Part shown: positions 1 through 53,064 of the stretch, piece after piece
How positions within the stretch are numbered: the stretch's first letter is position 1
Layout: each line of letters begins with the position of its first letter
Virus record (IMG/VR): IMGVR_UViG_3300028840_006907
Span: 1-64,000 of that record
Length of the DNA stretch: 64,000 bases
DNA from: a virus
Reading direction: 5' to 3' (one strand)
The notes under the pieces: model-generated
The model's input: the letters and a program-made list of their open reading frames with translations, nothing else
Told to the model about the DNA's origin: nothing
Databases searched by the model: none
Translations under genes and position numbers: made by a program

Positions 1-356
1 ATTATATCTGGTGGAGTTCCAAACCATAGTTTTCTGGGAGTCTTATATTTCAGTTTACCAATAGCAATACCTAGGATCAATAAAATTTCCATGATACGAT
101 GATAACTAGCCCATTGATCACCGTTTTTATTTTTACACATATTTAGGAATGTGTCACCACCGTTACTTTCCAGAAATGATTCAGGAAGCTGATTTATGAG
201 TTCACCGATATTAGCTTTGTTCTCTTCAAGTCTGCCAGGGTGAAGTCCAAAAGTTTGAAGAATGCCTTCTGCTCTGACATGTTTGGTTGTATCTTCTCCA
301 TTTTGAAAGAGACAGTTGTTTAATATTTCCTCTACGTTATTTTCAGTTAATTCCAT
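1..356 (-). CDS. hypothetical protein (partial, C-terminus beyond window edge)
   Basis: ATG at 354-356 on minus strand, frame open to position 1; co-oriented with downstream genes. Confidence 0.35.
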   Translation of the reverse strand, partial: MELTENNVEEILNNCLFQNGEDTTKHVRAEGILQTFGLHPGRLEENKANIGELINQLPESFLESNGGDTFLNMCKNKNGDQWASYHRIMEILLILGIAIGKLKYKTPRKLWFGTPPDI

Positions 357-359
357 GGA

Positions 360-605
360 TTATTCTCCTACAATTTCATCATCTACACTAAGTACCGGTG
401 ATACTACGATATACCATTTTTTACATTTTAATAATGATGTGACAGATTGACTTGATCCTATTAGTCTTCCATTATCTAATTCAACCCACCAGACCCAGGT
501 TCCGGCTTTACGTTGCCAATAACCTGGGTAACATCGGTAGAAAGAGACAGCTTTTAAATTAAACTCATCTTCAAGTCTCTTAATTAGTTTTTCACTTTTT
601 TTCAT
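360..605 (-). CDS. hypothetical protein
   Basis: 81-aa ORF; stop/start abut neighbours. Confidence 0.45.
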   Translation of the reverse strand: MKKSEKLIKRLEDEFNLKAVSFYRCYPGYWQRKAGTWVWWVELDNGRLIGSSQSVTSLLKCKKWYIVVSPVLSVDDEIVGE

Positions 606-787
606 TATTCATCGTCATCATAGCTACTATCATCATCGCTATCAGAACCGAAGATAGAATCATCATCATCAAAGGAACTTGATGATTTATAGCTACCAGA
701 TCTCTTTATTACTTTACCACATCTAGGGCATTTAGAGCCATATACAGCAGTTCCGCATTTTGAACATTTAGTCATATCACCCTCCAT
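605..787 (-). CDS. small zinc-ribbon protein with acidic Asp/Ser-rich tail
   Basis: CSKCG...CPRCG motif pair then DDDD/SDSDDD tail. Confidence 0.5.
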   Translation of the reverse strand: MEGDMTKCSKCGTAVYGSKCPRCGKVIKRSGSYKSSSSFDDDDSIFGSDSDDDSSYDDDE

Positions 788-807
788 ATTTTATTTAGAT
801 CTTTTAT

Positions 808-1467
808 TTAATTGTTAGTTCTATTAAGTTTTTTTACTTTAGAACTTTCTTCTATTTTAATATTATCAATTTCTTTAAATGCATTATTAGCAATACCTTC
901 ATAAACTTTTCGAAATTGAACAACTATCCGATTTATAAGATCTTTAATAAGGTTATTTAAAAGATACCAAATAATGCTGATGGGCCAATACATAACCCAT
1001 ACAGATATTTTCTTTTTACTTTCTTTAAATACTGGCCTTTCATAGCCATAACGAATCTGGCTTTTCCATTCCTCATGTAATTTTTTAGATATTGTTTTAG
1101 TATCTTTAGGAAGTTCCTTATCTTTTAAAAAATCCTCCCATTTTTCTTCTGTCTTTTTTGCTATCTTATTAAGCAAGAGTCCCCATTTTACCCAGGACCA
1201 TATAATTCCGAAAAGGATATATCCTGGTATTATCCATAAAAGATGGATAGGATTTTCTATTATCCATTTGAAAATGTTAATTTTTGCGAAAAATTGGATA
1301 GCTAAACTGTAAAGGACTAGCAGAACTATAGCGAATTCAAAAGAATCATGCTCTTCACAAATAATAGCTATAATAATAAAAATAAGAGTAAAAATATAGA
1401 ACCAAATTGAAATGGCAAATAGCGCTGAAAATAACGCTACAATCACTAAACCCTCCTCTTTTATCAT
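808..1467 (-). CDS. multi-pass membrane protein
   Basis: 219 aa, several long hydrophobic segments in N-terminal half. Confidence 0.5.
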   Translation of the reverse strand: MIKEEGLVIVALFSALFAISIWFYIFTLIFIIIAIICEEHDSFEFAIVLLVLYSLAIQFFAKINIFKWIIENPIHLLWIIPGYILFGIIWSWVKWGLLLNKIAKKTEEKWEDFLKDKELPKDTKTISKKLHEEWKSQIRYGYERPVFKESKKKISVWVMYWPISIIWYLLNNLIKDLINRIVVQFRKVYEGIANNAFKEIDNIKIEESSKVKKLNRTNN

Positions 1468-1500
1468 TGTTATTAGAGTCTGTTAATTTATGGCCATTCT

Positions 1501-2574
1501 TTATTCTTTGTCCTGTTGAATTAATGTATTGTTATATTCAGTATTAAAAATTAGTGTGTTATCAGCATTAGAATTACCTAGTAATATCTCTTTTATTTGA
1601 TCTATTTGTATTTCAATCTCTTGATTTGTTTTTACCGGGCAGTTATGGCTCTTATTATGGTAATTAAAATTGTCTATACCATTTGTTTCTGTATAGGTAA
1701 AATGATTATTGAGTCTTTCTTTTATATACCCGTTCATGAAATCAATATTATTGGTAAGATTATTTTCAATAATTTCTTTAAAATCATTATTATATTCAAT
1801 ACCTATACTATTTCTACCAGATGCCATAGCAGCTAGTGAGGTTGTACCGGTACCGAGAAATGGATCTAATATCACATCTCCTTTCAAGGAATACATATTA
1901 ATTAATCGGTATGGTAATTCAAAAGGAAAGGCAGCACTTCGCTCAATATTTTTATGATTAAGTTTTTGCTTTGTACCTTTAAAACTCCAAGTATCAGAGA
2001 ACCATTGATTCCTTTCTTCCCAGAAGAAAGCACTTTGTTTTCTTCTAAGTTTATCCTCAGGAGTGAGAAAGGTTCTTTTACCCATTTTTCTAAATATGAG
2101 TATGTATTCATTTTCCAGGGTTACATAAGCCCCTGCGGGAAGCATACCAGAACCCATGAATTTATTCGGGGCATTTGTTGGTTTTCTCCATAGGATTAAT
2201 GGAAGGGGAATAAGTCCTATATCCATACAGAAATCCATAACTCTGGCATGATTTGGGAATAATTGAAAAGTTTTATAAAATGTTCGAACAGCATCTCCGA
2301 TATTGAGGCAAGCAAAGCCACCGGGTTTTAGTACCCGATAACATTCTGACCATACTTTATCTAGCTCTTGATGCATAGCTTCAAAAAGTGCATTTGTTTT
2401 CATTTCTTTATCTGGTTTGATATCCAGAAAATCAAAGAACAGCATATCCCACATTTCTATCATAGGGTATGGAGGAGAAGTAATTATTAAATCAACACTA
2501 TTGCTCTTTAGTGGAAAGTTATCCCTAGAATCCCCAAAACGTATAATATGGTTAGTGATCATTGGTTCAGTCAT
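1501..2574 (-). CDS. DNA methyltransferase, beta-class amino-MTase (likely N4-cytosine or N6-adenine)
   Basis: Motif IV SPPY near N-terminus (LIITSPPYPMIEMWD) and motif I DPFLGTGTT near C-terminus; order IV then I. Confidence 0.8.
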   Translation of the reverse strand: MTEPMITNHIIRFGDSRDNFPLKSNSVDLIITSPPYPMIEMWDMLFFDFLDIKPDKEMKTNALFEAMHQELDKVWSECYRVLKPGGFACLNIGDAVRTFYKTFQLFPNHARVMDFCMDIGLIPLPLILWRKPTNAPNKFMGSGMLPAGAYVTLENEYILIFRKMGKRTFLTPEDKLRRKQSAFFWEERNQWFSDTWSFKGTKQKLNHKNIERSAAFPFELPYRLINMYSLKGDVILDPFLGTGTTSLAAMASGRNSIGIEYNNDFKEIIENNLTNNIDFMNGYIKERLNNHFTYTETNGIDNFNYHNKSHNCPVKTNQEIEIQIDQIKEILLGNSNADNTLIFNTEYNNTLIQQDKE

Positions 2575-3170
2575 AAATTGTAAATTCCTTCTAGTATTTC
2601 AGCTTTTGTTAATTTTATTCTTGAAGTAGACGGTATAACTGAATCCACTTCTTCTATTACTTCACTTAAATTTAAATTTAAAATATTTGTAATATGAATA
2701 TCAAAGTGTCTCGCTAGAGCTGTCGCGTAACTTGTCCCTCCTATATCTGGGCTATAACATAATACGATTCGGCTTAATTCATGTACGGGATCTGTATGTC
2801 CAATAATCTGATTTACATTACGTTCCATTAATAATTGCACACCACGTTCCATTTCTTGATAAGGTTTTCTGGCAACAAGATCGCACATAAATTCAGCTAT
2901 TTCTTTTTCTCGTTCAGGAATAATAGCATTGCCGATAACTTCCATCCCTGGATCATTCTTATAGGGTCTAATCCCATAAGTTTTCCAAGGTAGGTAGATA
3001 TCGGCAAAACCGTTTGCACCCTTTTCACAGGCTCTATCGGCTCCTACAGCGTGCCCACTACGTAATTTCAATTTGTAGGTATCTACAATAAATCTGCTAA
3101 CATTTTCAAGAATATTTAAATATTTTTCTGGAGTATTACGGCTACCGATTCCTGTAAAAAAACCATCCAT
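2571..3170 (-). CDS. DprA/SLOG-like Rossmann-fold protein
   Basis: FTGIGSRNTP and RSGHAVGADRACEKGA resemble DprA/Smf-SLOG nucleotide-binding motifs; 4-nt overlap with MTase gene. Confidence 0.45.
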   Translation of the reverse strand: MDGFFTGIGSRNTPEKYLNILENVSRFIVDTYKLKLRSGHAVGADRACEKGANGFADIYLPWKTYGIRPYKNDPGMEVIGNAIIPEREKEIAEFMCDLVARKPYQEMERGVQLLMERNVNQIIGHTDPVHELSRIVLCYSPDIGGTSYATALARHFDIHITNILNLNLSEVIEEVDSVIPSTSRIKLTKAEILEGIYNL

Positions 3171-3181
3171 TTTTACCTCAT

Positions 3182-3403
3182 CTAAATTTTTAAAAATAAT
3201 GAACCATCATATTTTAATTTTAAATTTTCTATCCCATTAATAATTTTAGTAAAAACTGCCTTTTTCTCTTTAGTAGTCAAGGTAATATTTAAACAGCTAG
3301 CATAATGATTGATTCCCCAATTTATTATATCTTTGTAGATATATTTCATTTGAGAACAATCTGTGATTACATAGAATACAATATCGGTCATATTATCAGT
3401 CAT
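3182..3403 (-). CDS. hypothetical protein
   Basis: 73-aa ORF, coupled to neighbours. Confidence 0.4.
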   Translation of the reverse strand: MTDNMTDIVFYVITDCSQMKYIYKDIINWGINHYASCLNITLTTKEKKAVFTKIINGIENLKLKYDGSLFLKI

Positions 3404-3681
3404 AATTTGTCTGTATTTAAATCAACAATCTCTCTATCGTAAAGTAGATCAGACCAACAATTATTTGGATTGGGTTCGGTATCTTTATTCCAATCAGCTT
3501 TCAACCCATATACAGAATAATCAACTGGGCAGAATTTTTCCGCTTCCTCCTTTGTCTGCCATACAGAACCACCACGATAGTTTTCTGTCCTTCCAAGTTT
3601 CATACATTTTTCTTGTTTTGATAAATATTGTTTATAACTTTCTGTATGCCCTATCGTAAAAATCATATGTCTCCTTTTCAT
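3400..3681 (-). CDS. hypothetical protein
   Basis: 93-aa ORF; no confident family assignment. Confidence 0.4.
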   Translation of the reverse strand: MKRRHMIFTIGHTESYKQYLSKQEKCMKLGRTENYRGGSVWQTKEEAEKFCPVDYSVYGLKADWNKDTEPNPNNCWSDLLYDREIVDLNTDKL

Positions 3682-3736
3682 GATTAATCCTTATATATTT
3701 ATACGACGCTAGCAATGCAAAAATACAGAAGTTTTT

Positions 3737-4030
3737 TTAGGCTAACATATAAGTTGTTCTAAACCAATCTTTTACCATTTCATTTTCTACACAGATATAA
3801 GCGTAAGCTTTTTCTTTTTCAAAAAACCAATATGCCACAAATACATCAGCGAAACCTGCTTCTTCTATCATTTTTTTCAAATAATATTTATTTATTTTAA
3901 TAAATTTTCCTTTATCAGAATCATCATAATCTAAAGTAAGAGTAAATTGAGGTTCAGCTTGAACTTTATTTGATACGAAATAGACCCCTTTTTCTAAAAA
4001 GTTTAAATTTCTAATTAATCTTTGTTCCAT
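3737..4030 (-). CDS. hypothetical protein
   Basis: 97-aa ORF. Confidence 0.45.
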   Translation of the reverse strand: MEQRLIRNLNFLEKGVYFVSNKVQAEPQFTLTLDYDDSDKGKFIKINKYYLKKMIEEAGFADVFVAYWFFEKEKAYAYICVENEMVKDWFRTTYMLA

Positions 4031-4032
4031 AA

Positions 4033-4224
4033 TTAATTGGGCAATCTCCTATCAGGATAAAAGGTTTCTTCGAGTTTGCCTTTTATTACTTTTTGTGTTA
4101 AGATAAGTATCTCTAAACGTTCTATATGTTCTTTATTCGTTGTCATATGTTTTTTTATTTCATGGGGATCTGCCGTGATCTCATCCCCGCATACAGGACA
4201 ACATAATTTTAATTTTTTATTCAT
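4033..4224 (-). CDS. small zinc-ribbon protein
   Basis: CCPVCG motif; start moved to internal ATG abutting upstream stop at 4217. Confidence 0.4.
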   Translation of the reverse strand: MNKKLKLCCPVCGDEITADPHEIKKHMTTNKEHIERLEILILTQKVIKGKLEETFYPDRRLPN

Positions 4225-5053
4225 AATCAATTTCTTCCGATAAGAGTAATTTGAAAAATGTTTCAGCCAATTCTTGTTCAAAGAATTTTGGCTCTCGAAT
4301 TTTTATAGTATCAAGCTTTAATAGATCTGCAAATGAATCAATTTTGATATCAATCTCTGGATCTATTAAAGGTTGACACCATTCCATCTCTTTCAACATA
4401 TCTGGTGTGAGAAATGTTTTTGCAATAAAAATATCCCCTAAATCTTCCAGGGCCAAGACTCCCATTCGAATATTTAAATAGCAATAACCATCTTTCATAG
4501 CATATTCTTTATTGCTATTTAAGATTAATCCGACTAGGATATCAGCACTAGTTGGGTCAGTTTTATAAATCCTTTTTAAATCCTCTGTGAGGGGGCTGTA
4601 TGCCCTTGGATCCACTCGTTCTTCTAGTCGCTCAATGCAGTGTGAGGTGACGAAGATATTCCCACAGGAGCCCCTATTCGGGCTCCCATACAATATCCCG
4701 CTATTTTTTATTTTATATACTCTATTGAAGTTAGTTTGGTAGGAAGCATTCCCTACACCTTTGAATTTTATATTGGTTAAGTTTATCCAGCGACCATATT
4801 TAGATCTTAATTTTTGTAGGATTTTTTCTTTTATGGCTTTTTGTTTTCGTTGAGGAATTCTTTTTTTCTGGTAATTTTTTCCACATATTTCATCGAATGT
4901 GCGGGACCAGATGATACTTATCATTGCATCTGGATGTTCTTCGAACGTTGATACGTTATCTTTACCGAAATGTTTTTTTAAAAGTTTTAGGTAATAATTT
5001 TCTTCTTCTTTGCCGTATTTGCTTACTATCCATTGAGAGGGATTCTTTTTCAC
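4217..5053 (-). CDS. hypothetical protein
   Basis: 278-aa ORF overlapping SpoVG-like gene stop by 4 nt. Confidence 0.5.
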   Translation of the reverse strand: MKKNPSQWIVSKYGKEEENYYLKLLKKHFGKDNVSTFEEHPDAMISIIWSRTFDEICGKNYQKKRIPQRKQKAIKEKILQKLRSKYGRWINLTNIKFKGVGNASYQTNFNRVYKIKNSGILYGSPNRGSCGNIFVTSHCIERLEERVDPRAYSPLTEDLKRIYKTDPTSADILVGLILNSNKEYAMKDGYCYLNIRMGVLALEDLGDIFIAKTFLTPDMLKEMEWCQPLIDPEIDIKIDSFADLLKLDTIKIREPKFFEQELAETFFKLLLSEEIDYE

Positions 5054-5307
5054 TTGTTTAGCTCCGCTTCGTATTCATCTAATACGGCATTTTCAATAAG
5101 TATTCTGGTTTCATTTTGTATTGGATGTACCATATCTACAATTTTACCAGTTTTTGTTTTTCTGCTTGGCATTGCTACAAAGTGCCCTTGCGCTCCTTCA
5201 ATAATTTTCAATCCTCGGACAATAAAGCAATCATCAAGAACAATATCAACAAAAGCTCTTACATTTCTGCTTCTATGCATTGTTACTTTTATTTCAGTAA
5301 TTTCCAA
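5050..5307 (-). CDS. spoVG: SpoVG-family nucleic-acid-binding protein
   Basis: MEITEIKV...FVAMPSRKT...HPIQNETR matches the conserved SpoVG core along its length. Confidence 0.85.
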   Translation of the reverse strand: MEITEIKVTMHRSRNVRAFVDIVLDDCFIVRGLKIIEGAQGHFVAMPSRKTKTGKIVDMVHPIQNETRILIENAVLDEYEAELNK

Positions 5308-5352
5308 TTTTTGCCTCCTTAAATACAGAGCAAATATTACTACGAAATGAGA

Positions 5353-6360
5353 TTAATCTACCCATTGAATTTTTCTACGGTACTGACCTGTTACTTCATC
5401 TATATCAGAGACATTTCCTGCTTCCTTTACTATTAAATTTAATTTACGTTTTAATTCTAGCTGAAGATCATCACTTTTTATTATTTCGGGAGAAGTATGT
5501 TTCTCCAAAAAATTATTTTTTAAATCAAGCAATTGTTTTTCAATGCTCACATCTCCAACAAAATTGAGTTCTGAAAAATCATCAATAAATTTTTTAAGTG
5601 AATTAATAGTAGGGCCTTTAACAATTTTCCCTGATTTCATATTGGTGGCGATTTTATCACAAAGAGTTACTACTTGTTCACGAAGATTTGTAACAACCTC
5701 ATTGATAAAAGAACCAATCTTTTCTTGGGCCTCTTTCTGATAAACATCGTAGGCAATATTCTCTTTTGCAATTTTATCTTCAGAAACTTTTCTCATTTTC
5801 GGTAGAGCAATTTCAAATATATTCCAGGTTAAAGAGAACCTATTTCTTAATGAAGTTGTGCTTGGATAGTATGATTTTATTCGGTCAAGAAAATTTGTGA
5901 CGAATTCTTCCTCTTCGTTTTCTTTACCTTCAATACTGAATTCATGAACACCTATTTTTGTTTGTCGGTTATAGGCAGCTTTGGCTGCTTCCTCATAAAT
6001 AGGTAGCATCTCTTTTCGTAATTTGTCGTAATCAACAATCAGGTTATCGATTAATTTATTATATGCCTCCTGATATTCCTGAAGAGTTTGCAGTATTTTT
6101 AAAAATTTCTTTTTGGGTACAAACCGTGCTGAACTTATAGGGAATTTAAAACTGTTCGTCTCAACTAGAAACCGAGCTTTACTTTCAATAGATCTGAATT
6201 TATGTATGGTTTCTTTTGGAACGAGCATCTTCTTACCAAGAAGATAAACATTAGATATAGTGTCTTTTTCTAATCCCAAGTCTTGAGCAGTCAGGATTTT
6301 TGCTCCAGTCCAGAACCGCACTTTAATTTCAACTAAAACACCATCTTTAAATATATCCAT
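5353..6360 (-). CDS. DUF3150-like protein (plasmid/phage-associated)
   Basis: N-terminal VLVEIKVRFWTGAKILTAQDLGL pattern recalled as typical of DUF3150; 335 aa. Confidence 0.4.
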   Translation of the reverse strand: MDIFKDGVLVEIKVRFWTGAKILTAQDLGLEKDTISNVYLLGKKMLVPKETIHKFRSIESKARFLVETNSFKFPISSARFVPKKKFLKILQTLQEYQEAYNKLIDNLIVDYDKLRKEMLPIYEEAAKAAYNRQTKIGVHEFSIEGKENEEEEFVTNFLDRIKSYYPSTTSLRNRFSLTWNIFEIALPKMRKVSEDKIAKENIAYDVYQKEAQEKIGSFINEVVTNLREQVVTLCDKIATNMKSGKIVKGPTINSLKKFIDDFSELNFVGDVSIEKQLLDLKNNFLEKHTSPEIIKSDDLQLELKRKLNLIVKEAGNVSDIDEVTGQYRRKIQWVD

Positions 6361-6386
6361 AATTATTTTCCTATCATTAATAAGTG

Positions 6387-6420
6387 CTGTCCCTTTAATG
6401 AAAAAGGGACAGTGTTTTTT
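6387..6420 (+). terminator. hairpin plus T-run oriented for plus-strand transcription
   Basis: ctgtcccttt...aagggacag stem followed by tgtttttt, overlapping stop of 6419-7981 gene. Confidence 0.35.
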
Positions 6421-7981
6421 ATAAGTTTAATTTCCTTTTACCTATTACCTGTTCAGCCTTCATCTCTATTGAAGCTTTTTTCACTCTACGTTTTTCAGAC
6501 CATTCACGGCCTTTCTTAATATCCTCGGCATAAAGCTGTGCTGTAAGTGATACTTCTTTAGCACTTGTAACAAGATCTTCAGTGGAGATTTCCTGATTTT
6601 TGCTGAATGAAAATTTCAGAGTATCATTAATCCAAACTTCAATTTCAGATCCACTAAAATCTTTAGTGGATTTAACTAATTGCTTTATGTCGAAGTTGCT
6701 GGGGTCACGATTTATTTTTCCCAAATGTATTGAGATAATTTTCTCTCGTTCACTATCATAAGGGAAATCAACCCAGAAGATTGCATCCATACGACCACCA
6801 CGAATTAGTTCAGGAGGTAGTTTCGTTGCATCGTTTGAAGTAGCTGCAATGAATACATCAGTTGTTCTTTCAGCCATCCAGGTTAAAAGTGTTGCTAGCA
6901 TTTTTTGAGAAGTCTCATGAACATGCCCACTTTTATTATTAGGAAAAGCTTTTTCGATTTCATCTATTCGTAAGACACAGGGAGCATTTGCATCAACGAT
7001 ACTGAGACATCTTCTTATTTTCTCTTCTGATTCTCCTACAAGACTGCCTAAGAGTGCACCTACATCAAGACTGAATAATGGTCGTTCCCAAACATTGGCG
7101 ATAACTTTTGCAACAAGAGATTTCCCGGTTCCAGGAGGGCCTACGAATAGGGCACCTTTGGGAGGAAGTATTCCATATTCTCTGGCTTTCTCAGTGAAAC
7201 AATTCTTTCTAACCAGGAGCCATTCTTTAAGGTTATCAAGTCCACCAATGTCATCAAGAGTTTCTGTTACACTAATAACATTTAAGAGCCCTGTGTTTTT
7301 AACAACTGTGGCTTTTTCTCTATTAATAACATTAATGTCAAGACATTTTCTTTCAACAATGGAAAGAGAATAAGCATTCTCAGCTTCATCAGATGTCATT
7401 CCTAAGGCTGCTTCAATAAGGGAAGTATCGTTTTTGGGGTACTCTATGGAATCTTCAACTGATCTAGCGTTTTCATAAGCTCGTTGACATACTTTTCTTA
7501 AAGTATTTGTATTTGGAAGTTTAAAATCAATTACAGTTATTTCTTTCTTTAATTCATCTGGTATTGATGAACAGCAAGAAACAACAGCCAAAACTCTACC
7601 GGTAGATCTGCAGATTGGAATTATATTTCGTATTTTTCGTTGAATAAAATCTTTTTTAATATAATGGTGGAAATCTAATAGAAAAAAGATAGAATTCTCT
7701 TCCACCTCTTCTGAACTTATCCAATTAAGAGCCAACATTGGATCATCTGTTTTAGTTTTTATATCTAATTTATTTTCTAAAAGGATATTATTATCATTTA
7801 TTTCTCGGAGTTTGATTCCATCAACTCTGTCCCAAGAATAAAATTTATAATTTCCTTTGTCAAGTTTGTTCATTTCATTTGCTAGGGTTCTTATCGCCCT
7901 ATGTTCTTCATGGGTCTGTATCCACAAAATTGTATAACCGGCACGTATATAATTTGAAAAGATGTGTTCTTTATTTTCCAT
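6419..7981 (-). CDS. AAA+ ATPase with N-terminal domain of unknown function
   Basis: Walker A GPPGTGKS, Walker B VLRIDEIEKA, sensor region TSNDATKLPPELIRGGRMD. Confidence 0.85.
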   Translation of the reverse strand: MENKEHIFSNYIRAGYTILWIQTHEEHRAIRTLANEMNKLDKGNYKFYSWDRVDGIKLREINDNNILLENKLDIKTKTDDPMLALNWISSEEVEENSIFFLLDFHHYIKKDFIQRKIRNIIPICRSTGRVLAVVSCCSSIPDELKKEITVIDFKLPNTNTLRKVCQRAYENARSVEDSIEYPKNDTSLIEAALGMTSDEAENAYSLSIVERKCLDINVINREKATVVKNTGLLNVISVTETLDDIGGLDNLKEWLLVRKNCFTEKAREYGILPPKGALFVGPPGTGKSLVAKVIANVWERPLFSLDVGALLGSLVGESEEKIRRCLSIVDANAPCVLRIDEIEKAFPNNKSGHVHETSQKMLATLLTWMAERTTDVFIAATSNDATKLPPELIRGGRMDAIFWVDFPYDSEREKIISIHLGKINRDPSNFDIKQLVKSTKDFSGSEIEVWINDTLKFSFSKNQEISTEDLVTSAKEVSLTAQLYAEDIKKGREWSEKRRVKKASIEMKAEQVIGKRKLNL

Positions 7982-7998
7982 TTTTCAATTCCTTGAAT

Positions 7999-8202
7999 TT
8001 AAAATTGATTGACTATCTGCTTTATTACTAAAATTCTATTAAGGATTTTATTGTAGGATAGATTTAATTCGTTTTGAATATCTTTAAATGAATAGTTATT
8101 CAGAAAATAAAAAGATGCTATAGTATAAGTTATCCTATCTACTTTTGACTTTAAATAATTCATAATGTCTTTGGAATAATTATTTGCATGTGGCATATTC
8201 AT
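7999..8202 (-). CDS. sigma-70 region-4-like HTH protein
   Basis: ITYTIASFYFLNNYSFKDIQNELNLSYNKILNRI is paralogous to C-terminus of 8180-8800 product. Confidence 0.35.
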   Translation of the reverse strand: MNMPHANNYSKDIMNYLKSKVDRITYTIASFYFLNNYSFKDIQNELNLSYNKILNRILVIKQIVNQF

Positions 8203-12355: not shown

Positions 12356-13540
12356 TTATCCTCTTACATAATCAGTTACACAGTTAATTTCATCATCACT
12401 TATCCAGGCACCGTGATATCGTTCAGGTTCAGAAGCACCAGGATAAATCATTAACATATCTCCCTTACCGGCCAGAGCTTCAGCTCCATTGCAATCAAGA
12501 ATAACTCTGGAATCATTTTTGGATGATACTTGGAATGAGATCCTTGAAGGCATATTGGATTTAATAAGACCAGTGATAACTTTAACGATAGGCTTTTGAG
12601 TTGCAAGTACCAGATGGATACCTACTGCTCTGGCTAATTGAGCCAACCGTACGATCATTTTCTCAAGTTCTTTACCTGAAGTCATCATAAGATCAGCCAT
12701 CTCATCAACCACAGTTACTATATAAGGAAGTTTTGTATCGGAATTTTTATTAAAACTTTCGATATTTCTTACTCGATAATCAGCTAAGAGTTTATATCTA
12801 CGATCCATTTCTTCAATTAAATCTGAGAACACATGCACCGCTTCTGAGGGCTCGGTAACCACAGGGCATCTCAGGTGGGATAAATTATTATATGACGCCA
12901 TTTCCACTCTCTTGGGATCGACAAGGACAAGCTGGCATTCATCTGGTGTTCGAGTAAATAATATTGAAAGAAGAATACTATTTATACATACAGATTTACC
13001 TGATCCAGTTTGACCTGCGATTAAAAGATGAGGCATAGTAGTCAAATCGATTATTTTTGGATTACCAATAGTATCGGTTCCAAGTACGATGGGAATCTTG
13101 GTATTGGAATCAGTGGTAAAGATATCACGGAAACCGATAATGGATCTTGTTTCATTCATCATTTCTATTCCAACACAAGCTGTACCTGGAATGGGTGCTT
13201 GGATTCTGATATTGGATGACATTAAAGCCATTGCGATATCTTCAGTGATCTTTTTAATCTGAGCAATCCTTACACCTTTTGATAATTTCAGTTCATATCG
13301 GGTAACCACTGGGCCATGTTTAATATCCTGGACAGCAGTATCGAATCCAAGTTCAGCGATCCTGTTTTCAAGATCATGAGAGCTTAAACTGTTGGGTATT
13401 CTATTGGATGAATACTCGTTTAAGAGTCCTAAATGAGGTTTTCTATATCTTTTGTTTTTCTTCTTTTTACATGCATCTTCCTCGGAATTAAGGAGTTGCA
13501 TTACATTTAAGAGCTTTCTGAATTTTGTTGATTTGTTCAT
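12356..13540 (-). CDS. FtsK/SpoIIIE-family DNA translocase motor (alpha/beta domains only)
   Basis: GPVVTRYEL, APIPGT..VGIE, Walker A GQTGSGKS, Walker B VVDEMADLMM; no N-terminal TM or gamma domain. Confidence 0.8.
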   Translation of the reverse strand: MNKSTKFRKLLNVMQLLNSEEDACKKKKNKRYRKPHLGLLNEYSSNRIPNSLSSHDLENRIAELGFDTAVQDIKHGPVVTRYELKLSKGVRIAQIKKITEDIAMALMSSNIRIQAPIPGTACVGIEMMNETRSIIGFRDIFTTDSNTKIPIVLGTDTIGNPKIIDLTTMPHLLIAGQTGSGKSVCINSILLSILFTRTPDECQLVLVDPKRVEMASYNNLSHLRCPVVTEPSEAVHVFSDLIEEMDRRYKLLADYRVRNIESFNKNSDTKLPYIVTVVDEMADLMMTSGKELEKMIVRLAQLARAVGIHLVLATQKPIVKVITGLIKSNMPSRISFQVSSKNDSRVILDCNGAEALAGKGDMLMIYPGASEPERYHGAWISDDEINCVTDYVRG

Positions 13541-13698: not shown

Positions 13699-14712
13699 AT
13701 GAAATATTTAATTTCTCATCAGATAAAAGTGTTGGCGAATTGTTTAGAGAACTATAAAGAGGTATGGGATATAGTTCCTATAATGATGCGGATCTCTTTT
13801 GAGAATCCCAAATTAAGTATGAAAGAGATTCAGGTTAAAAGTAAGATGGAAAATTATGGGAATCTTTTTTCAAGAATAATGGCAGATTTAAAAACTGCTC
13901 AGGAAAAGAATATTGTTTTCAAAAGACCTCATAAAGTTTTTAAGCAAGCGGATGATTTGCTTGTGTTATTTAATAAGTTGACAGGTAAAAAAGAAACCAC
14001 AAGTGAGAGTTCTGAAAATGAGTTATTAGATATTGTTAATATCCTTTCTGAAAATGTCAAACCTTTATCAAAAAGACCAAAGTGGGAAATTGAAAATCTT
14101 AAGGTCATGGATGATATCGATGCCTTAATGAAGAAGTTTCCTTTTACCATTCAAACGGTATTGCAACGCTCCATAAAAAGGAAAGAAGAAATAGAGCAGG
14201 AATTGGGAAAAGGTGTCACAGCAAAAAGAGAAATAAAAGTGTATCTCGATATGGATAGTTGTATCACCGACTGTGACAAGGCTATCAGGAAGCTAGGACC
14301 GAAAGTTGCCAAAGGTTTAGCAGATGATGCTTCCGAGGAAGAGAAGCAATACATGTATGATAAGATTGAAGAGAAGGGGGCTGAGTTCTGGTCTGAAATG
14401 GAATGGATGCCCAAAGGTGAAGAGCTTTGGAAAGTGGTAAAGAAATATGATCCTGTTTTGCTGTCCTCACCAGGATTATTTAAATGGGCTCCTGGTGGAA
14501 AGAAAAATTGGGTAGATAAAAATATTCCAGGAACAACTTTGTATCTTGATATTGACAAATATCAATGGGCTGAACCCGACTCAGTTCTCATCGATGATCG
14601 GGTTTCAAATATAGAGAGTTGGAAAGAGGCCGGTGGTGAAGCCATCCTTTATGAAAATGATCCAGAACTCGTTAAATTAAAACTAAAAGAGATCATCAGT
14701 CAACCGGGGTAA
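13699..14712 (+). CDS. protein with C-terminal HAD-like 5'(3')-deoxyribonucleotidase-type domain
   Basis: YLDMDSCI (DxD-type) and C-terminal VLIDDRVSNIESWKEAGGEAILYEND; only long plus-strand gene in the left arm. Confidence 0.45.
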   Translation: MKYLISHQIKVLANCLENYKEVWDIVPIMMRISFENPKLSMKEIQVKSKMENYGNLFSRIMADLKTAQEKNIVFKRPHKVFKQADDLLVLFNKLTGKKETTSESSENELLDIVNILSENVKPLSKRPKWEIENLKVMDDIDALMKKFPFTIQTVLQRSIKRKEEIEQELGKGVTAKREIKVYLDMDSCITDCDKAIRKLGPKVAKGLADDASEEEKQYMYDKIEEKGAEFWSEMEWMPKGEELWKVVKKYDPVLLSSPGLFKWAPGGKKNWVDKNIPGTTLYLDIDKYQWAEPDSVLIDDRVSNIESWKEAGGEAILYENDPELVKLKLKEIISQPG

Positions 14713-20973: not shown

Positions 20974-21882
20974 TCAATACTTCGACTGATTACATCCATG
21001 ATTAAATTTGTATTCATTTAATTCATCATTGGACATATGTCCATGTTTCTTGATCGTTTCTTCTAAAATCTGAGGTAATAACTTTTCACCCCAAACTCCC
21101 ATGTTCGGGACAATCTCTCCTCTTGAATTTTTGGATTTGGTAGGGTCTCCTTCAAGAGCATTGGCTCTGATTTTATTTCGTTCCAGTAGCTCCCATTCCT
21201 CATAGTCCTCACGATAAAATCTGTACAACCATAAAAGTTCGATCTCACTCATGAAAGGACATAATAAACAGTTCGATGGATAAGGCACATGCAAGCCCGT
21301 AGAGGCCATGTAATCCTGGCAATCCTTTCTATCCATTCCCATCTCTATGAGTGGATAGATAACCTCTATGGCTTTCTCCTGCCATTTTGGGCGCTCACCC
21401 TTGTTAACACGTTTTTCTTCTCCTTTGGCAATACCGATAAGCATATTGATTTTATCATATGTTTCAGCAAATTGTTTCAATCCTTTCTTTCTTCCTGATT
21501 TAAATCCATATTCTTTTTGAATCCAGTATTCGAGATATTTATATATAGGTCTCAATTTAAGTCTTTCGGTACAAGTTTTGGGAAAACATTTGCTTCCAAT
21601 TCTATTTTTTGTTTTATAGAAAAATCTTAATGTTTGCCAGTCGGGAGAGTGGAATCCCATGTCGTTTGTAAGATGAACAAATTCTACTACATTTTGAGAA
21701 CAGAATTCCTTTATAAATTGTATATGTTTATAGGTATGGGGATGCTCATCACCAGTATCGGCCATGATCACCAAAAGCCGTCCTGGTGCATATTTTTTTC
21801 TGAAATTGTTATCGAGGGCGTACTTGTAAAGTAAAGTGGTGCTGTCTTGTCCGCCCCCGTAACTTAAGACCGTAAGTTCCAT
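20974..21882 (-). CDS. PAPS-reductase/ATP-sulfurylase-like (adenine-nucleotide alpha-hydrolase) protein
   Basis: N-terminal LSYGGGQDSTTLL PP-loop variant of SGGxDS. Confidence 0.65.
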   Translation of the reverse strand: MELTVLSYGGGQDSTTLLYKYALDNNFRKKYAPGRLLVIMADTGDEHPHTYKHIQFIKEFCSQNVVEFVHLTNDMGFHSPDWQTLRFFYKTKNRIGSKCFPKTCTERLKLRPIYKYLEYWIQKEYGFKSGRKKGLKQFAETYDKINMLIGIAKGEEKRVNKGERPKWQEKAIEVIYPLIEMGMDRKDCQDYMASTGLHVPYPSNCLLCPFMSEIELLWLYRFYREDYEEWELLERNKIRANALEGDPTKSKNSRGEIVPNMGVWGEKLLPQILEETIKKHGHMSNDELNEYKFNHGCNQSKY

Positions 21883-22707
21883 CTATTTATTTTTCTCCTG
21901 GTTTGAAGTATCTTTTTTATAAAGGATAAGATCCTTTATTTCATGAGGATTATAATAGAATTGTGTACTCGGATTTTCTTGAGCCATTGAAGTAATTGTT
22001 TTCAGTAATTCTTTTATTAATTGATTTTCTATAGTTTTATATTTTTGAGATGGTAATGGCTCTCCTTTCTTTATAAATAAATTTCTTCCTTTGCATAGTA
22101 AAAGTACTCTACCTCTATTAATCAAATAAGAAGCTTTTTGTTTTGTTATCCCAACGGATTTAGCCCATTCATCAATAGACTGATAACCTGATGGTGGTTT
22201 AATATCTTTCAGTTTTGGTTGAAGAAGAGAAAGGTTTGAAAAGAATTGTTTATCTTTATGTCTATTTATTCGATTACCTTTACAATGTCTACAAGGTTTT
22301 TTACATAAACCTATAAAATGTATTCGTAGATTTCCACAATTTTTACAAAATCCAAGTCTAGGTTTATTTAAAAATAATGTTTTTAGACGCTCGGGATTAT
22401 GATAAATCTGTCTATATTCTTTTCTCTCATTAATTGTTTTGTCTTTGTCATAAGGTCTTGTAGGGATACCTGTATAATATAAATCTATAGCCTCTTTATT
22501 ATATTCTAAAAAAGATACCCAGGCTTTTTCAACTAATAATTCTGGGTCTTTTTTAGCAAGACTTACATGTATATCTTCAAAAAATATGTTATAATTTGAG
22601 AGTGTTTTAAATCCTTCATAAAGCTGTTCCATATCCCATACATGAAAGATATACCTATTAGCATGAAAGCAATTGAAGGCATCTAAAATTTCATCATAAT
22701 CCATCAT
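21883..22707 (-). CDS. zinc-finger protein with HTH-like segment
   Basis: CKNCGN...CKKPCRHCKG cluster; abuts PAPS-reductase-like gene. Confidence 0.5.
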   Translation of the reverse strand: MMDYDEILDAFNCFHANRYIFHVWDMEQLYEGFKTLSNYNIFFEDIHVSLAKKDPELLVEKAWVSFLEYNKEAIDLYYTGIPTRPYDKDKTINERKEYRQIYHNPERLKTLFLNKPRLGFCKNCGNLRIHFIGLCKKPCRHCKGNRINRHKDKQFFSNLSLLQPKLKDIKPPSGYQSIDEWAKSVGITKQKASYLINRGRVLLLCKGRNLFIKKGEPLPSQKYKTIENQLIKELLKTITSMAQENPSTQFYYNPHEIKDLILYKKDTSNQEKNK

Positions 22708-23279
22708 TTCTCCAATTGTACCAAAATTCTCACCAAGTCACTTTTAGTGAAAGTGACATTACCTACTATAAGTTTTCCCCTTTTTATTTGATAAGGGAGA
22801 GAAATATCTGCTGATTCTTTTTGTGAAGTTTCAATAGCTTTGGTAGTTTTAAGGGATTCAATATAAGCTCTTTGTTCTGATCGATTACGAATATGGTCAG
22901 AAGCAAAAACTTGTTTTACTTGATCTGGTTGAAGATTATGTATACTTACTTTCAACACATCATTATTTGGTAATAAAACATCTAGAGGTTCTTCTACATA
23001 TTTAGATTGTTCTGCAAAAGAACATTTTCCAAGTTTCTTTGCCCCTGTTGTAAGATTAGTGAGGAGTTTTACATGAAGAGAACCTCTTCCTACAGATTCA
23101 AACCTGCGCCATGCAGTAGAGGAAATATCAGGATAGGCTTCTTGAAAATCGTATATTGCATCTGGATTGTCATCTATTGTTTTAACATATAGCTTACATG
23201 CTTTTAAAAGATATCCAATACCTTTTGTAAATAACTCTCCAAATTTATTAATTGCTGTTTCTTGAATATTATTTTTCAT
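22704..23279 (-). CDS. hypothetical protein
   Basis: 191-aa ORF, 4-nt overlap with downstream gene. Confidence 0.5.
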   Translation of the reverse strand: MKNNIQETAINKFGELFTKGIGYLLKACKLYVKTIDDNPDAIYDFQEAYPDISSTAWRRFESVGRGSLHVKLLTNLTTGAKKLGKCSFAEQSKYVEEPLDVLLPNNDVLKVSIHNLQPDQVKQVFASDHIRNRSEQRAYIESLKTTKAIETSQKESADISLPYQIKRGKLIVGNVTFTKSDLVRILVQLEK

Positions 23280-50908: not shown

Positions 50909-51517
50909 TTAGTTATAGCGAGTTATTCCGTCACTGGATTCAAAATCCATTGCGAGTATGGTATATAATTCCGTTTCCTGTGTATTAATTGTGTCTGGAT
51001 TGACTTGTCTGGAATATCCATCACTGCTTTCAAAATCCATTGCGAGTGAAGCAAATTCATTTGATATGGTTACAAGCGAGTTAACTGGTTGAATTTCAAC
51101 GATTTCAGTCTGGGTTTGGACTTCTTTAATACATTCATCCATTAAACTATTTAGAGTATCTAAGTCGGTAGTTTTTACGAAGGTTTCCCAGTCCTCTTTG
51201 GACATATTAAAATATTCTCGTACGACTTCGAGTTTATCTATATCTGTTATAGTTTTTACTTTGTTCCCGTTTTGCCAAATACTTTTAGCTTTATTAGTAT
51301 ATATAATCTCGCCTGTAAAGTTATGGTTGAAATTTAACCAGCGAGTCTCGTTATTTACTGACGGGTCAATGACTTCAGCGAGTTTATTACCAAAACGGTT
51401 TATACGATAACGGCCAGTACATTGAACGTTTATCCATTCACGAATTGTTTTTCTTGCGGTTTGGTTTGTGCCATTAATAACAGCACCAATTAATTTATCG
51501 TTCATTAGTATAGACAT
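50909..51517 (-). CDS. hypothetical protein with duplicated C-terminal LAMDFESSDG motif
   Basis: First gene of the leftward array next to the control hub; about 35-nt DNA direct repeat inside its 3' end. Confidence 0.5.
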   Translation of the reverse strand: MSILMNDKLIGAVINGTNQTARKTIREWINVQCTGRYRINRFGNKLAEVIDPSVNNETRWLNFNHNFTGEIIYTNKAKSIWQNGNKVKTITDIDKLEVVREYFNMSKEDWETFVKTTDLDTLNSLMDECIKEVQTQTEIVEIQPVNSLVTISNEFASLAMDFESSDGYSRQVNPDTINTQETELYTILAMDFESSDGITRYN

Positions 51518-51572
51518 AATATTTCCCCTTGTCTAATGTATATATTAACAGTCAATTATTTTTTTCTGTTGT

Positions 51573-51940
51573 CATGAATAATGAAAAAAGTTTAGTAACT
51601 TTCCGAAGTTTTAAGAAACTTTTTCTTTGACGTTTGTTTTTTGTGGCTTTCATGAGTAATGAAAAAAGTTTAGTAACTTTCCGAAGTTTTAAAAATTTTT
51701 TCTTTCATGTAAACTTTTCCTTGTCTACATGAGTAATGAAAAAAGTTTAGTAACTTTCCGAAGTTTTAAAAATTTTTTCTTTCATGTAAACTTTTCCTTG
51801 TCTACATGAGTAATGAAATTAGTTTGGTAACTTTCCGAAGTTTTAAAAATTTTTTCTTTCATGTAAACTTTTCCTTGTCTACATGAGTAATGAAATTAGT
51901 TTGGTAACTTTCCGGAAAAAATTGTAAAAACGCTATTTTC
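51573..51940. repeat. 77-bp tandem direct repeats, about 4.4 copies
   Basis: Units begin at 51573 (degenerate), 51651, 51728, 51805, 51882 (partial). Confidence 0.95.
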
Positions 51941-52312
51941 CTTTATATAGGGGAGAGCCAGAAATCGCCCGTTTGATGTGCGTGATATATACGCCCGAAA
52001 ATGTTCCCGGTTCTAACCCCCCAGTGAAATACCCTTTCCACAAAAGTGAAATACCCCAATACAACTATACCATACCCGACCATACCCCACCCCCGGGACC
52101 TGTCTTCGGGATCATCATCATGCGCTTGCTTTTCGTGCGCTCAATGCCATACCCACCCCCTTTTTGTAAAGATTTTTGGAAGTTGGAAATGGATGGAGTT
52201 AGATTGGATTTTTTGGATGGTAGAAAATTTTGGCTGGTGGGAGAGACCCCACAGTAAAGTACCCGGTTGGTTCAGGGAAGTACCAATATGGTTCAGTGGA
52301 GTGTCTTTTTTG

Positions 52313-52370
52313 TGGCGCATATCCTGTTATAGTGGCGCATATTCTATTATAATGGCGCATATTTCAGTTC
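52313..52370. repeat. three direct GTGGCGCATAT boxes at about 20-bp spacing
   Basis: gtggcgcatatcctgttata / gtggcgcatattctattata / atggcgcatatttcagttca. Confidence 0.9.
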
Positions 52371-52397
52371 AAAGCTCTCAGAACCCAGTTCAAAGAA

Positions 52398-52628
52398 CAG
52401 GGAACAGGGAACTGAGCACAGGGAACTGAGCACAGGGAACCGAGCACAGGGAACCGAGCACAGGGAACTGAGCACAGGGAACTGAGCACAGGGAACTGAG
52501 CACAGGGAACCGAGCACAGGGAACCGAGCACAGGGAACTGAGCACAGGGAACCGAGCACAGGGAACTGAGAACAGGGAACCGAGCACAGGGAACTGAGAA
52601 CAGGGAACTGAGAACAGGGAACCGAGCA
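52398..52628. repeat. 14-bp tandem repeat array, 16 copies, GC-rich
   Basis: CAGGGAAC(T/C)GAGCA with T/C and C/A variants; partial copy then units from 52405. Confidence 0.95.
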
Positions 52629-52872
52629 CCTGTATCTGTGATCTCGGAAAAGTTTCGGGAAAAAAATCGGGAACGGCTCAGGGCTGAGAAATAGGTATGA
52701 ATTTTTTTGGGGTATAATTTTTGGAGTTAAACAGTTGGGGAAATTGGAGTTATCTTATGTGAGGTGATGGGATAGTTTATGGAGGGTGAAAATTTTTTGG
52801 TATAGTTTGATGGAGAAACAGGTATAATACTTATAGGACGGAAAAATTTAAGTCTAATGGTTCGAGGATCTT

Positions 52873-53064
52873 GTGAAGAAGAACACAAAGCGTAAATTAA
52901 ATAAATTGATAGCATTTTGCAAGGATGAGGGGATGGACATAAGTGCGGATGGTGGTTTAATTTATGTCACGGTAGGAAATGGTCGGATGAATGAGGAGGT
53001 TTGGTGTGAGAAGGCTATCAGTGGTTTTTCGGAGGTTGGTGATTTTGGTTTTAACGAGGATTAA
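52873..53064 (+). CDS. hypothetical protein, first gene of rightward array
   Basis: 63-aa ORF; GGTATAAT box about 40 nt upstream. Confidence 0.45.
   Translation: MKKNTKRKLNKLIAFCKDEGMDISADGGLIYVTVGNGRMNEEVWCEKAISGFSEVGDFGFNED

Follow-up and report, generated by a model that had tools for sequence, protein, structure and literature searches.

Introduction

The methylases M.MthZI, M.MjaI, M.BfaI and HVO_0794 are beta-class CTAG N4-cytosine methylases of 303-364 residues that bear the catalytic motif SPPY; M.MthZI is encoded on a plasmid of M. thermoformicicum (PMC5867850; PMC11033074), and HVO_0794 of Haloferax is an orphan CTAG methylase (PMC5867850). Beta-class methyltransferases act as dimers (PMC7544214). 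Viral SLOG domains, found in 31% of jumbo phages, are typically standalone and are combined with Macro, NADAR and DUF4326 domains; their predicted role is the sensing or degradation of immune signals derived from ADP-ribose (Iyer, Burroughs, Anantharaman, Aravind; PMC9503650). Jumbo-phage DprA/Smf copies were proposed by the same group to be extra single-stranded DNA (ssDNA)-binding proteins (PMC7824862). In this study, we analyzed a locus at which genes of these kinds overlap, within a 64,000-nucleotide stretch of viral DNA (IMG/VR record IMGVR_UViG_3300028840_006907, positions 1 to 64,000), hereafter the window. A methyltransferase (MTase) gene at 1501..2574 on the minus strand encodes 357 residues, and the gene directly upstream of it, at 2571..3170 on the same strand, encodes a standalone, DprA-like viral SLOG protein of 199 residues, hereafter the partner.

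The sequence-only reading of this locus had proposed that the two genes may form an anti-restriction module. Our analysis did not support that proposal, as none of the 80 IMG/VR loci carrying the partner family had an adjacent methylase, a methylase lay within 5 kb in only two or three loci, the pair was interrupted by insertions or replacements in close relatives, and overlapping gene ends proved routine on the source contig. Partner genes mostly occurred without an adjacent methylase, the very finding that had been named beforehand as speaking against a module. We consider it probable that the pair represents two independent accessory genes, one for a predicted CTAG MTase and one for a SLOG protein acting on ADP-ribose- or nicotinamide adenine dinucleotide (NAD)-derived nucleotides, which stand next to each other incidentally in a long, tightly packed minus-strand operon. 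Both genes belong to known kinds, and their adjacency is most simply read as incidental.

Gene arrangement

The two genes share the four nucleotides ATGA (2571..2574, minus strand), as read from the sequence, with the TGA of the partner at 2571-2573 and the ATG of the MTase at 2572-2574. A Shine-Dalgarno-like AAGGA (2586-2590, minus strand) precedes the MTase ATG by 11 nt within the coding end of the partner and may serve as its ribosome-binding site. The open reading frames (ORFs), the 4-nt overlap and the motifs SPPY, DPFLGTGTT, GIGSR and SGHAVGADR listed by the sequence-only reading were all present at their positions. Because the MTase matched PF01555, the partner matched phrog_768 and each had many homologues, both ORFs are real genes instead of chance reading frames.

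The overlap was not distinctive, since about half of the gene junctions on the same contig overlap as well. In the gene table of the ~469-kb metagenomic contig that contains the window (ENA ERZ27256798 k141_1708087), which we read as a huge phage, 23 of 47 consecutive junctions overlapped by manual count, four of them by exactly 4 nt. The window itself has a G+C content of ~32% and consists of densely packed, small, co-directional ORFs, mostly without known function, some of which belong to phage-type families. A promoter and terminator scan of positions 300-6500 returned no more sites than were found in shuffled sequences and so delimited no transcription unit; a tRNA search found none. Megablast of positions 1-8000 matched none of 50,697 phage records, so there was no close cultured relative from which annotation could be transferred.

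Family, fold and motifs of the SLOG partner

The description of the partner as a DprA/SLOG-like Rossmann protein was borne out by its family match, its fold and its motifs. In PHROGs, the partner matched phrog_768, 'DprA-like DNA recombination-mediator protein', at 9.2e-29, with residues 3-173 aligned to profile positions 4-176 of 191. Comparison with DprA and LOG profiles had been suggested along with the initial description: the match to PF02481 (DprA/Smf) was weak and fell below the Pfam cut-off (11.2 bits against a threshold of 29.6, E 0.21), and the LOG family (PF03641) gave no match. Weak PF02481 matches were also returned by 30 of 35 partner-family members, the best at 2.8e-7. Searches of NCBIfam and PADLOC with the partner found nothing, and sequence searches against PDB chains, whether with the single sequence, a profile or the family member P0034, returned only noise (E ~1), so a comparison of folds was needed.

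An AlphaFold model of the partner built on 35 homologues reached a predicted local distance difference test score of 96.1 and a predicted template modelling score of 0.92, and it displayed the Rossmann-fold DprA domain. In Foldseek, the solved structures that matched the model best were DprA from H. pylori, R. palustris and S. pneumoniae together with ShosA, a DprA-like antitoxin (E 3e-5 to 5e-4); the next ranks were taken by Moco carrier proteins, LOG enzymes and the SLOG domains of ThsA. The partner forms a single domain with a short C-terminal helical extension and a family-specific insertion (residues ~60-108) that contains a conserved YLPW motif. Its isoelectric point (pI) is acidic at 5.6, within a family range of 5 to 10.

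Four conserved elements line up along the minus strand. The sequence GIGSR occupies residues 7-11 and includes G-S-R (3138..3146, residues 9-11), which corresponds to the first DprA signature motif, G-S/T/A-R, and was present in every one of the 74 unique members that the fetched loci supplied. The second signature motif, F/L/Y-x-x-R-N/D, is represented by L-M-E-R-N (2817..2831, residues 114-118), found in 68 of the 74 members, and the same number carried both motifs together; R117 was invariant in the family alignment (A1). The sequence SGHAVGADR (3033..3059, residues 38-46) forms a conserved loop and helix after strand 2, in which S38, G39, A41 and D45, together with the preceding R37, were invariant in the same alignment. 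The glycine loop of the nucleotide pocket is G-G-T (2733..2741, residues 144-146), with G144 and G145 also invariant; it is not the LOG motif, as PGGxGTxxE was absent from the partner and from all 74 members.

These features set the partner apart from each of the nearest characterized groups. Relative to bacterial DprA/Smf (PF02481; H. pylori structures 4LJK and 4LJR) and ShosA, it was only 14-18% identical in structural alignments, lacked the SAM and DML1/winged-helix domains of bacterial DprA, and carried its own insertion with YLPW. It also had Ala at the position equated with R170 of H. pylori DprA (HpDprA), a correspondence that is our own mapping from a weak HMMER alignment and was given little weight. 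The SLOG domain of Thoeris ThsA, a sensor of 3' cyclic ADP-ribose (3'cADPR), was structurally less similar than DprA, and the partner showed neither a match to a PADLOC defence model nor fusion to a SIR2 or TIR effector. LOG/PpnN hydrolases were likewise structurally less similar than DprA, and the partner lacked their PGGxGTxxE motif. The partner falls within the viral standalone SLOG family (phrog_768; Iyer et al. 2021/2022), with which it shares the profile family, a standalone length of ~180-200 residues and occurrence in large lytic and jumbo phages. The clade to which the window belongs differs from that family by a C-terminal extension of ~30 residues, an acidic pI, and a methylase as immediate neighbour instead of an ADP-ribose-processing gene.

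Function of the SLOG partner

The partner family is large and phage-centred. A profile search of 1.84 billion representative proteins (clusters at 50% identity) returned 6316 clusters at E<=1e-3 and 2659 at E<=1e-30, and a translated search placed the family in 547 cultured phage records, including N4-like, phi92-like, phAPEC8-like and rV5-like phages, T4-like Aeromonas and Acinetobacter phages, and jumbo phages. This makes it one of the largest uncharacterised phage protein families, and the value of the present observations lies in the family instead of in this locus. Published work offers competing predictions for this family, namely a DprA-like mediator that binds ssDNA and a processor or sensor of ADP-ribose signals; the pocket motifs favour the former and the fusion partners the latter.

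Most members are standalone proteins of 165-220 residues. In a Pfam scan of 20 longer members, the SLOG domain was fused to Macro in four (P0212, P0215, P0255, P0286), to NADAR in three (P0158, P0167, P0286), to DUF4326 in three (P0208, P0210, P0228), to MazG in one (P0209), to a RecJ module (DHH-DHHA1-OB) in one (P0184) and to other SLOG families in one protein of ~1475 residues (P0158); no fusion to a methyltransferase was found among the 20. The neighbourhoods agreed with this picture. When all ORFs within 3 kb of the partner were clustered across ~90 fetched loci, 80 of them the IMG/VR loci mentioned above, the commonest neighbour cluster was NADAR (10 loci), followed by IMPDH/GMP-reductase-like (six) and NAMPT-like (five) genes. 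In Pseudomonas phage VCM (L012:198-3570), the SLOG gene is closely preceded by genes for NAMPT and a Macro-domain protein, and in L004, a relative of the window, a NADAR gene (4351-4728) lies downstream, ~1.3 kb beyond the MTase. The SLOG gene thus tends to sit in NAD- or ADP-ribose-related accessory regions, and the fusions and neighbourhoods found here with Macro, NADAR and DUF4326 agree with the description by the authors of the viral SLOG family (PMC7824862; PMC9503650).

A set of giant proteins of ~1460-1580 residues with a partner-type SLOG domain was also noted (P0158, P0159, P0190, P0195 and L087:4269-9014). The first of these (1475 residues) joins the partner-type SLOG domain with YAcAr and LDcluster4 SLOG domains and a C-terminal NADAR domain, and the giant proteins look like polyvalent ADP-ribose-processing proteins.

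We propose that the conserved pocket of the partner, formed by GSR, SGHAxGAD, LxxRN and GGT, would bind a nucleotide. Given the family-wide fusions and neighbourhoods (Macro, NADAR, DUF4326, MazG, NAMPT), the protein would most likely bind or process an ADP-ribose- or NAD-derived nucleotide, either in free form or perhaps linked to DNA, and so serve in counter-defence. For this ADP-ribose-related role in itself, we see the chances as about evenly balanced.

Several observations stand against that assignment and have to be weighed together. It draws on genomic context and not on the protein itself, and single-sequence phmmer searches, of limited sensitivity, found no NADAR, Macro or NAMPT gene in the window, nor IMPDH. 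DprA was the top structural match, and the partner keeps both of the signature motifs that define ssDNA-binding DprA domains (Wang et al. 2014, PMC3950713). As regards the pocket itself, R52, R143/N144 and G164 of HpDprA, which clamp a single flipped base (PMC3950713), correspond to R11, R117/N118 and G145 of the partner, all invariant or nearly so in alignment A1. A further observation concerned P0184 (728 residues), in which a RecJ-like DHH-DHHA1-OB exonuclease carries a partner-family SLOG domain at its C-terminus, the sole fusion found that favours ssDNA over ADP-ribose.

The RecJ fusion and the DprA motifs therefore favour a reading in which the partner is a minimal DprA, a true recombination mediator that would bind ssDNA and load a RecA/UvsX-type recombinase, unrelated either to the MTase or to ADP-ribose. 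The base-clamping residues do not separate the two readings, since they line a general SLOG nucleotide pocket and would suit an ADP-ribose-type ligand as well as ssDNA. We regard the recombination mediator as unlikely and the RecA-loader role as less likely than the ADP-ribose/NAD role; the probability left over by these two falls to neither of them. A role on ADP-ribosylated DNA would reconcile the ssDNA and ADP-ribose readings, which is speculation on our part.

Family and predicted specificity of the MTase

The identification of the MTase as a beta-class amino-methyltransferase was confirmed by a PF01555 match at 6.6e-46 (157.5 bits against a gathering cut-off of 26.7, residues 27-270), and its full length matched the PADLOC Type II methylase model MTase_II PDLC03283 at 1.3e-132. 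The catalytic motif IV, SPPY (2467..2478, minus strand, residues 33-36; read from the sequence), precedes the S-adenosylmethionine (AdoMet)-binding motif I, DPFLGTGTT (1840..1866, minus strand, residues 237-245), which is the beta-class order. SPPY was kept in 118 of the 120 best homologues. The closest solved structure was 2zie (TTHA0409 of Thermus thermophilus, 1.5e-33), another SPPY protein, with CcrM and the N4-cytosine methyltransferase of a rotifer far lower in the ranking. More than 8000 homologues were found, many of them ~55% identical and located in cellular bacteria and archaea. In cultured phages, the same type was represented by one weak match of 34% identity among the 50,697 records.

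A translated search of plasmids returned a methylase of 355 residues from the Methanothermobacter plasmid pFZ1 with 51% identity and 69% similarity over 327 residues (E 9e-117). Plasmid pFZ1 comes from strain Z-245, and we take its methylase to be M.MthZI, leaning also on the two published accounts of that enzyme given in the Introduction. The pFZ1 gene overlaps a convergent gene annotated 'MjaI family restriction endonuclease', and an Alistipes homologue (P0055, 54% identity to the MTase; contigs L094-L097) adjoins a convergent PF09568 RE_MjaI gene. Pairing with CTAG endonucleases of the MjaI family was thus seen for homologues and not for the window gene. The MTase shares the Pfam family, motif order, SPPY and a similar length with M.MthZI, M.MjaI, M.BfaI and HVO_0794. 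It belongs to the M.MthZI/M.MjaI/M.BfaI family, with a predicted specificity for CTAG and m4C as product. The earlier suggestion that SPPY pointed to an N4-cytosine enzyme gained support through this homology and through the published SPPY-bearing CTAG methylases.

The orphan status of the MTase also held. No endonuclease family was matched in PHROGs among the ORFs flanking the MTase, and an MjaI-family endonuclease used as phmmer query against all six translated frames of the window retrieved no homologue, so that no cognate endonuclease adjoins the gene as it would in a complete Type II restriction-modification system. In this respect, and in its setting on a huge phage-like contig without an MjaI-family endonuclease nearby, the MTase differs from M.MthZI, M.MjaI and M.BfaI; it is an orphan as HVO_0794 is.

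The MTase would most likely use AdoMet to methylate the first C of CTAG at N4 in the phage DNA, acting probably as a dimer as other beta-class enzymes do. CTAG occurs 72 times in the window, where base composition alone predicts 196 sites and a Markov model 92 (ratio 0.78); only mild depletion remained once neighbour effects were removed, and the CTAG frequency is therefore uninformative. With that many sites, unmodified DNA would be cut often, and methylation would shield the ~72 sites per 64 kb from C^TAG endonucleases of the MjaI/MthZI/BfaI type, which are found alongside the cellular homologues. Protection of the phage's own DNA by an orphan MTase of the CTAG/m4C family is most likely what the gene provides, as judged from its homologues. 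The annotation of the MTase can accordingly carry a concrete predicted target, CTAG with m4C as product. The presence of the MTase hints that CTAG-cutting restriction systems are in use in the host of the phage or in its community.

The assignment is weakened by its basis in ~51% identity, as specificity can shift within methylase families. Under an alternative reading, the MTase would have another specificity, or methylate adenine, and would play an epigenetic or regulatory role instead of a protective one. Consistent with such a role, TTHA0409, the closest structure, is described only as a 'putative modification methylase' in its PDB record, with no target given in the related papers, and CTAG-type orphan methylases without endonucleases exist, HVO_0794 among them (PMC5867850). 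A CTAG site, the predicted target, also lies within the MTase's own ribosome-binding region, at 2591-2594 on the minus strand, directly 5' of AAGGA and within the coding end of the partner, and self-regulation of the MTase through methylation of this site is conceivable. We nevertheless judge a different specificity quite unlikely, as the alignment with the pFZ1 enzyme is near full length and takes in the stretch from motif IV to motif I in which beta-class enzymes recognise their target, MjaI-family endonucleases accompany two independent homologues, and SPPY is almost universal among the homologues.

Linkage of the two genes

Methylases were rare in the vicinity of the partner family. Among the 80 IMG/VR loci, phmmer detected a methylase related to the MTase within 5 kb of the partner in two, L014 (601 nt upstream, E 5e-4) and L088 (2.8 kb upstream, E 1e-14), and a class-independent motif screen found candidate methylases in three of 79 partner loci. 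In cultured phages sampled from the 547 partner-bearing records (Pokken, VCM and phiM7), the partner had as neighbours small early genes, genes for NAD salvage and Macro proteins, and an RNA ligase gene, respectively. From the side of the MTase, homologues at 57-59% identity occupied cellular contexts without a SLOG gene, and a phage-like homologue at 62% identity (L100, L101) was preceded by a leucine-rich-repeat (LRR)-like gene.

Close relatives of the window gave a patchy picture. The contigs L002 and L003 keep the partner and MTase adjacent with an overlap of 8 nt, L004 and L005 have two small genes between them, and in L006-L008 an LRR-like repeat gene comes right after the partner. The last three contigs end there, before any further downstream gene is visible. 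A methylase farther along in L006-L008 is therefore possible. Because adjacency was patchy across both the wider loci and the relatives, the linkage of partner and MTase is lineage-specific synteny.

The LRR-like proteins that adjoin the partner or the MTase (L006:4437-4850, L101:150-839 and L100:2948-3643) share the pattern LPxLPNLxxLxCxxCxGL, and their genes occur in several paralogous copies per related phage-like contig.

Independence of the two genes has to be set against evidence from within the window's lineage and from H. pylori. The overlap recurs in L002 and L003, and in at least three related contigs the two genes were inherited together and diverged to a similar degree, the partner and the MTase being 60% and 67% identical to those of the window in L002 and 57% and 64% identical in L004. 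Selection for linkage may thus act within this lineage. Moreover, HpDprA physically binds methyltransferases and stimulates methylation, and it inhibits Type II restriction endonucleases (PMC3597690), which is a direct precedent for a functional pair.

By analogy with HpDprA, the SLOG protein might bind incoming or replicating phage DNA and shield it from restriction enzymes, and might recruit or stimulate the co-translated MTase so that CTAG is methylated before the host endonuclease acts. The conserved ssDNA-binding motifs, the rank of DprA as top fold match and the similar divergence of the two proteins would suit a module of this type, as would the ~30-residue C-terminal extension, which in alignment A1 is shared by the methylase-carrying clade of the partner and missing from most other family members. 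We consider this module improbable. Beyond the lack of an adjacent methylase in the 80 viral loci, none of the 20 multidomain members scanned from the partner family is fused to a methylase, two genes have been inserted between the pair in L004 and L005, and LRR-like genes adjoin the partner in L006-L008 and the MTase in L100 and L101. The cellular MTase homologues work with endonucleases and without any SLOG partner, overlapping junctions are the norm in the operon, and the partner is acidic, with Ala at the position that our weak HMMER alignment equates with HpDprA R170.

A recruitment of the SLOG protein as MTase partner specific to this huge-phage lineage, either as a DprA-like shield or booster or as a sensor of NAD/ADP-ribose immune signals that switches the MTase on, would constitute a kind of two-gene anti-restriction device so far undescribed in phages, and we hold it to be very improbable.

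Other features of the window

Upstream of the pair, a minus-strand block at 5050-7981 encodes an AAA ATPase (phrog_8638, 1.7e-120), a DUF3150 protein, a SpoVG-like protein and a protein of 278 residues. This block is conserved and syntenic in L002 and L006.

Further along, an FtsK/SpoIIIE-like ATPase gene (1.4e-95) lies at 12356-13540 on the minus strand. It adjoins a lone plus-strand gene within the minus-strand block (13699-14712), and the C-terminal half of that gene's product resembles 5'-3' deoxyribonucleotidase. A minus-strand group at 20974-23279 could be a DNA- or nucleotide-modification cluster; it comprises a gene for a PAPS-reductase-like protein (phrog_424, 3e-29) and, after it, two closely spaced genes of unknown function (21883-22707 and 22704-23279). 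Toward the far end of the window, gene orientation turns from minus to plus at ~51500-53000, where the GC skew changes from ~-0.06 to +0.33, and transcription or replication could diverge here. The G+C content rises locally to as much as 0.40 between 52 and 56 kb.

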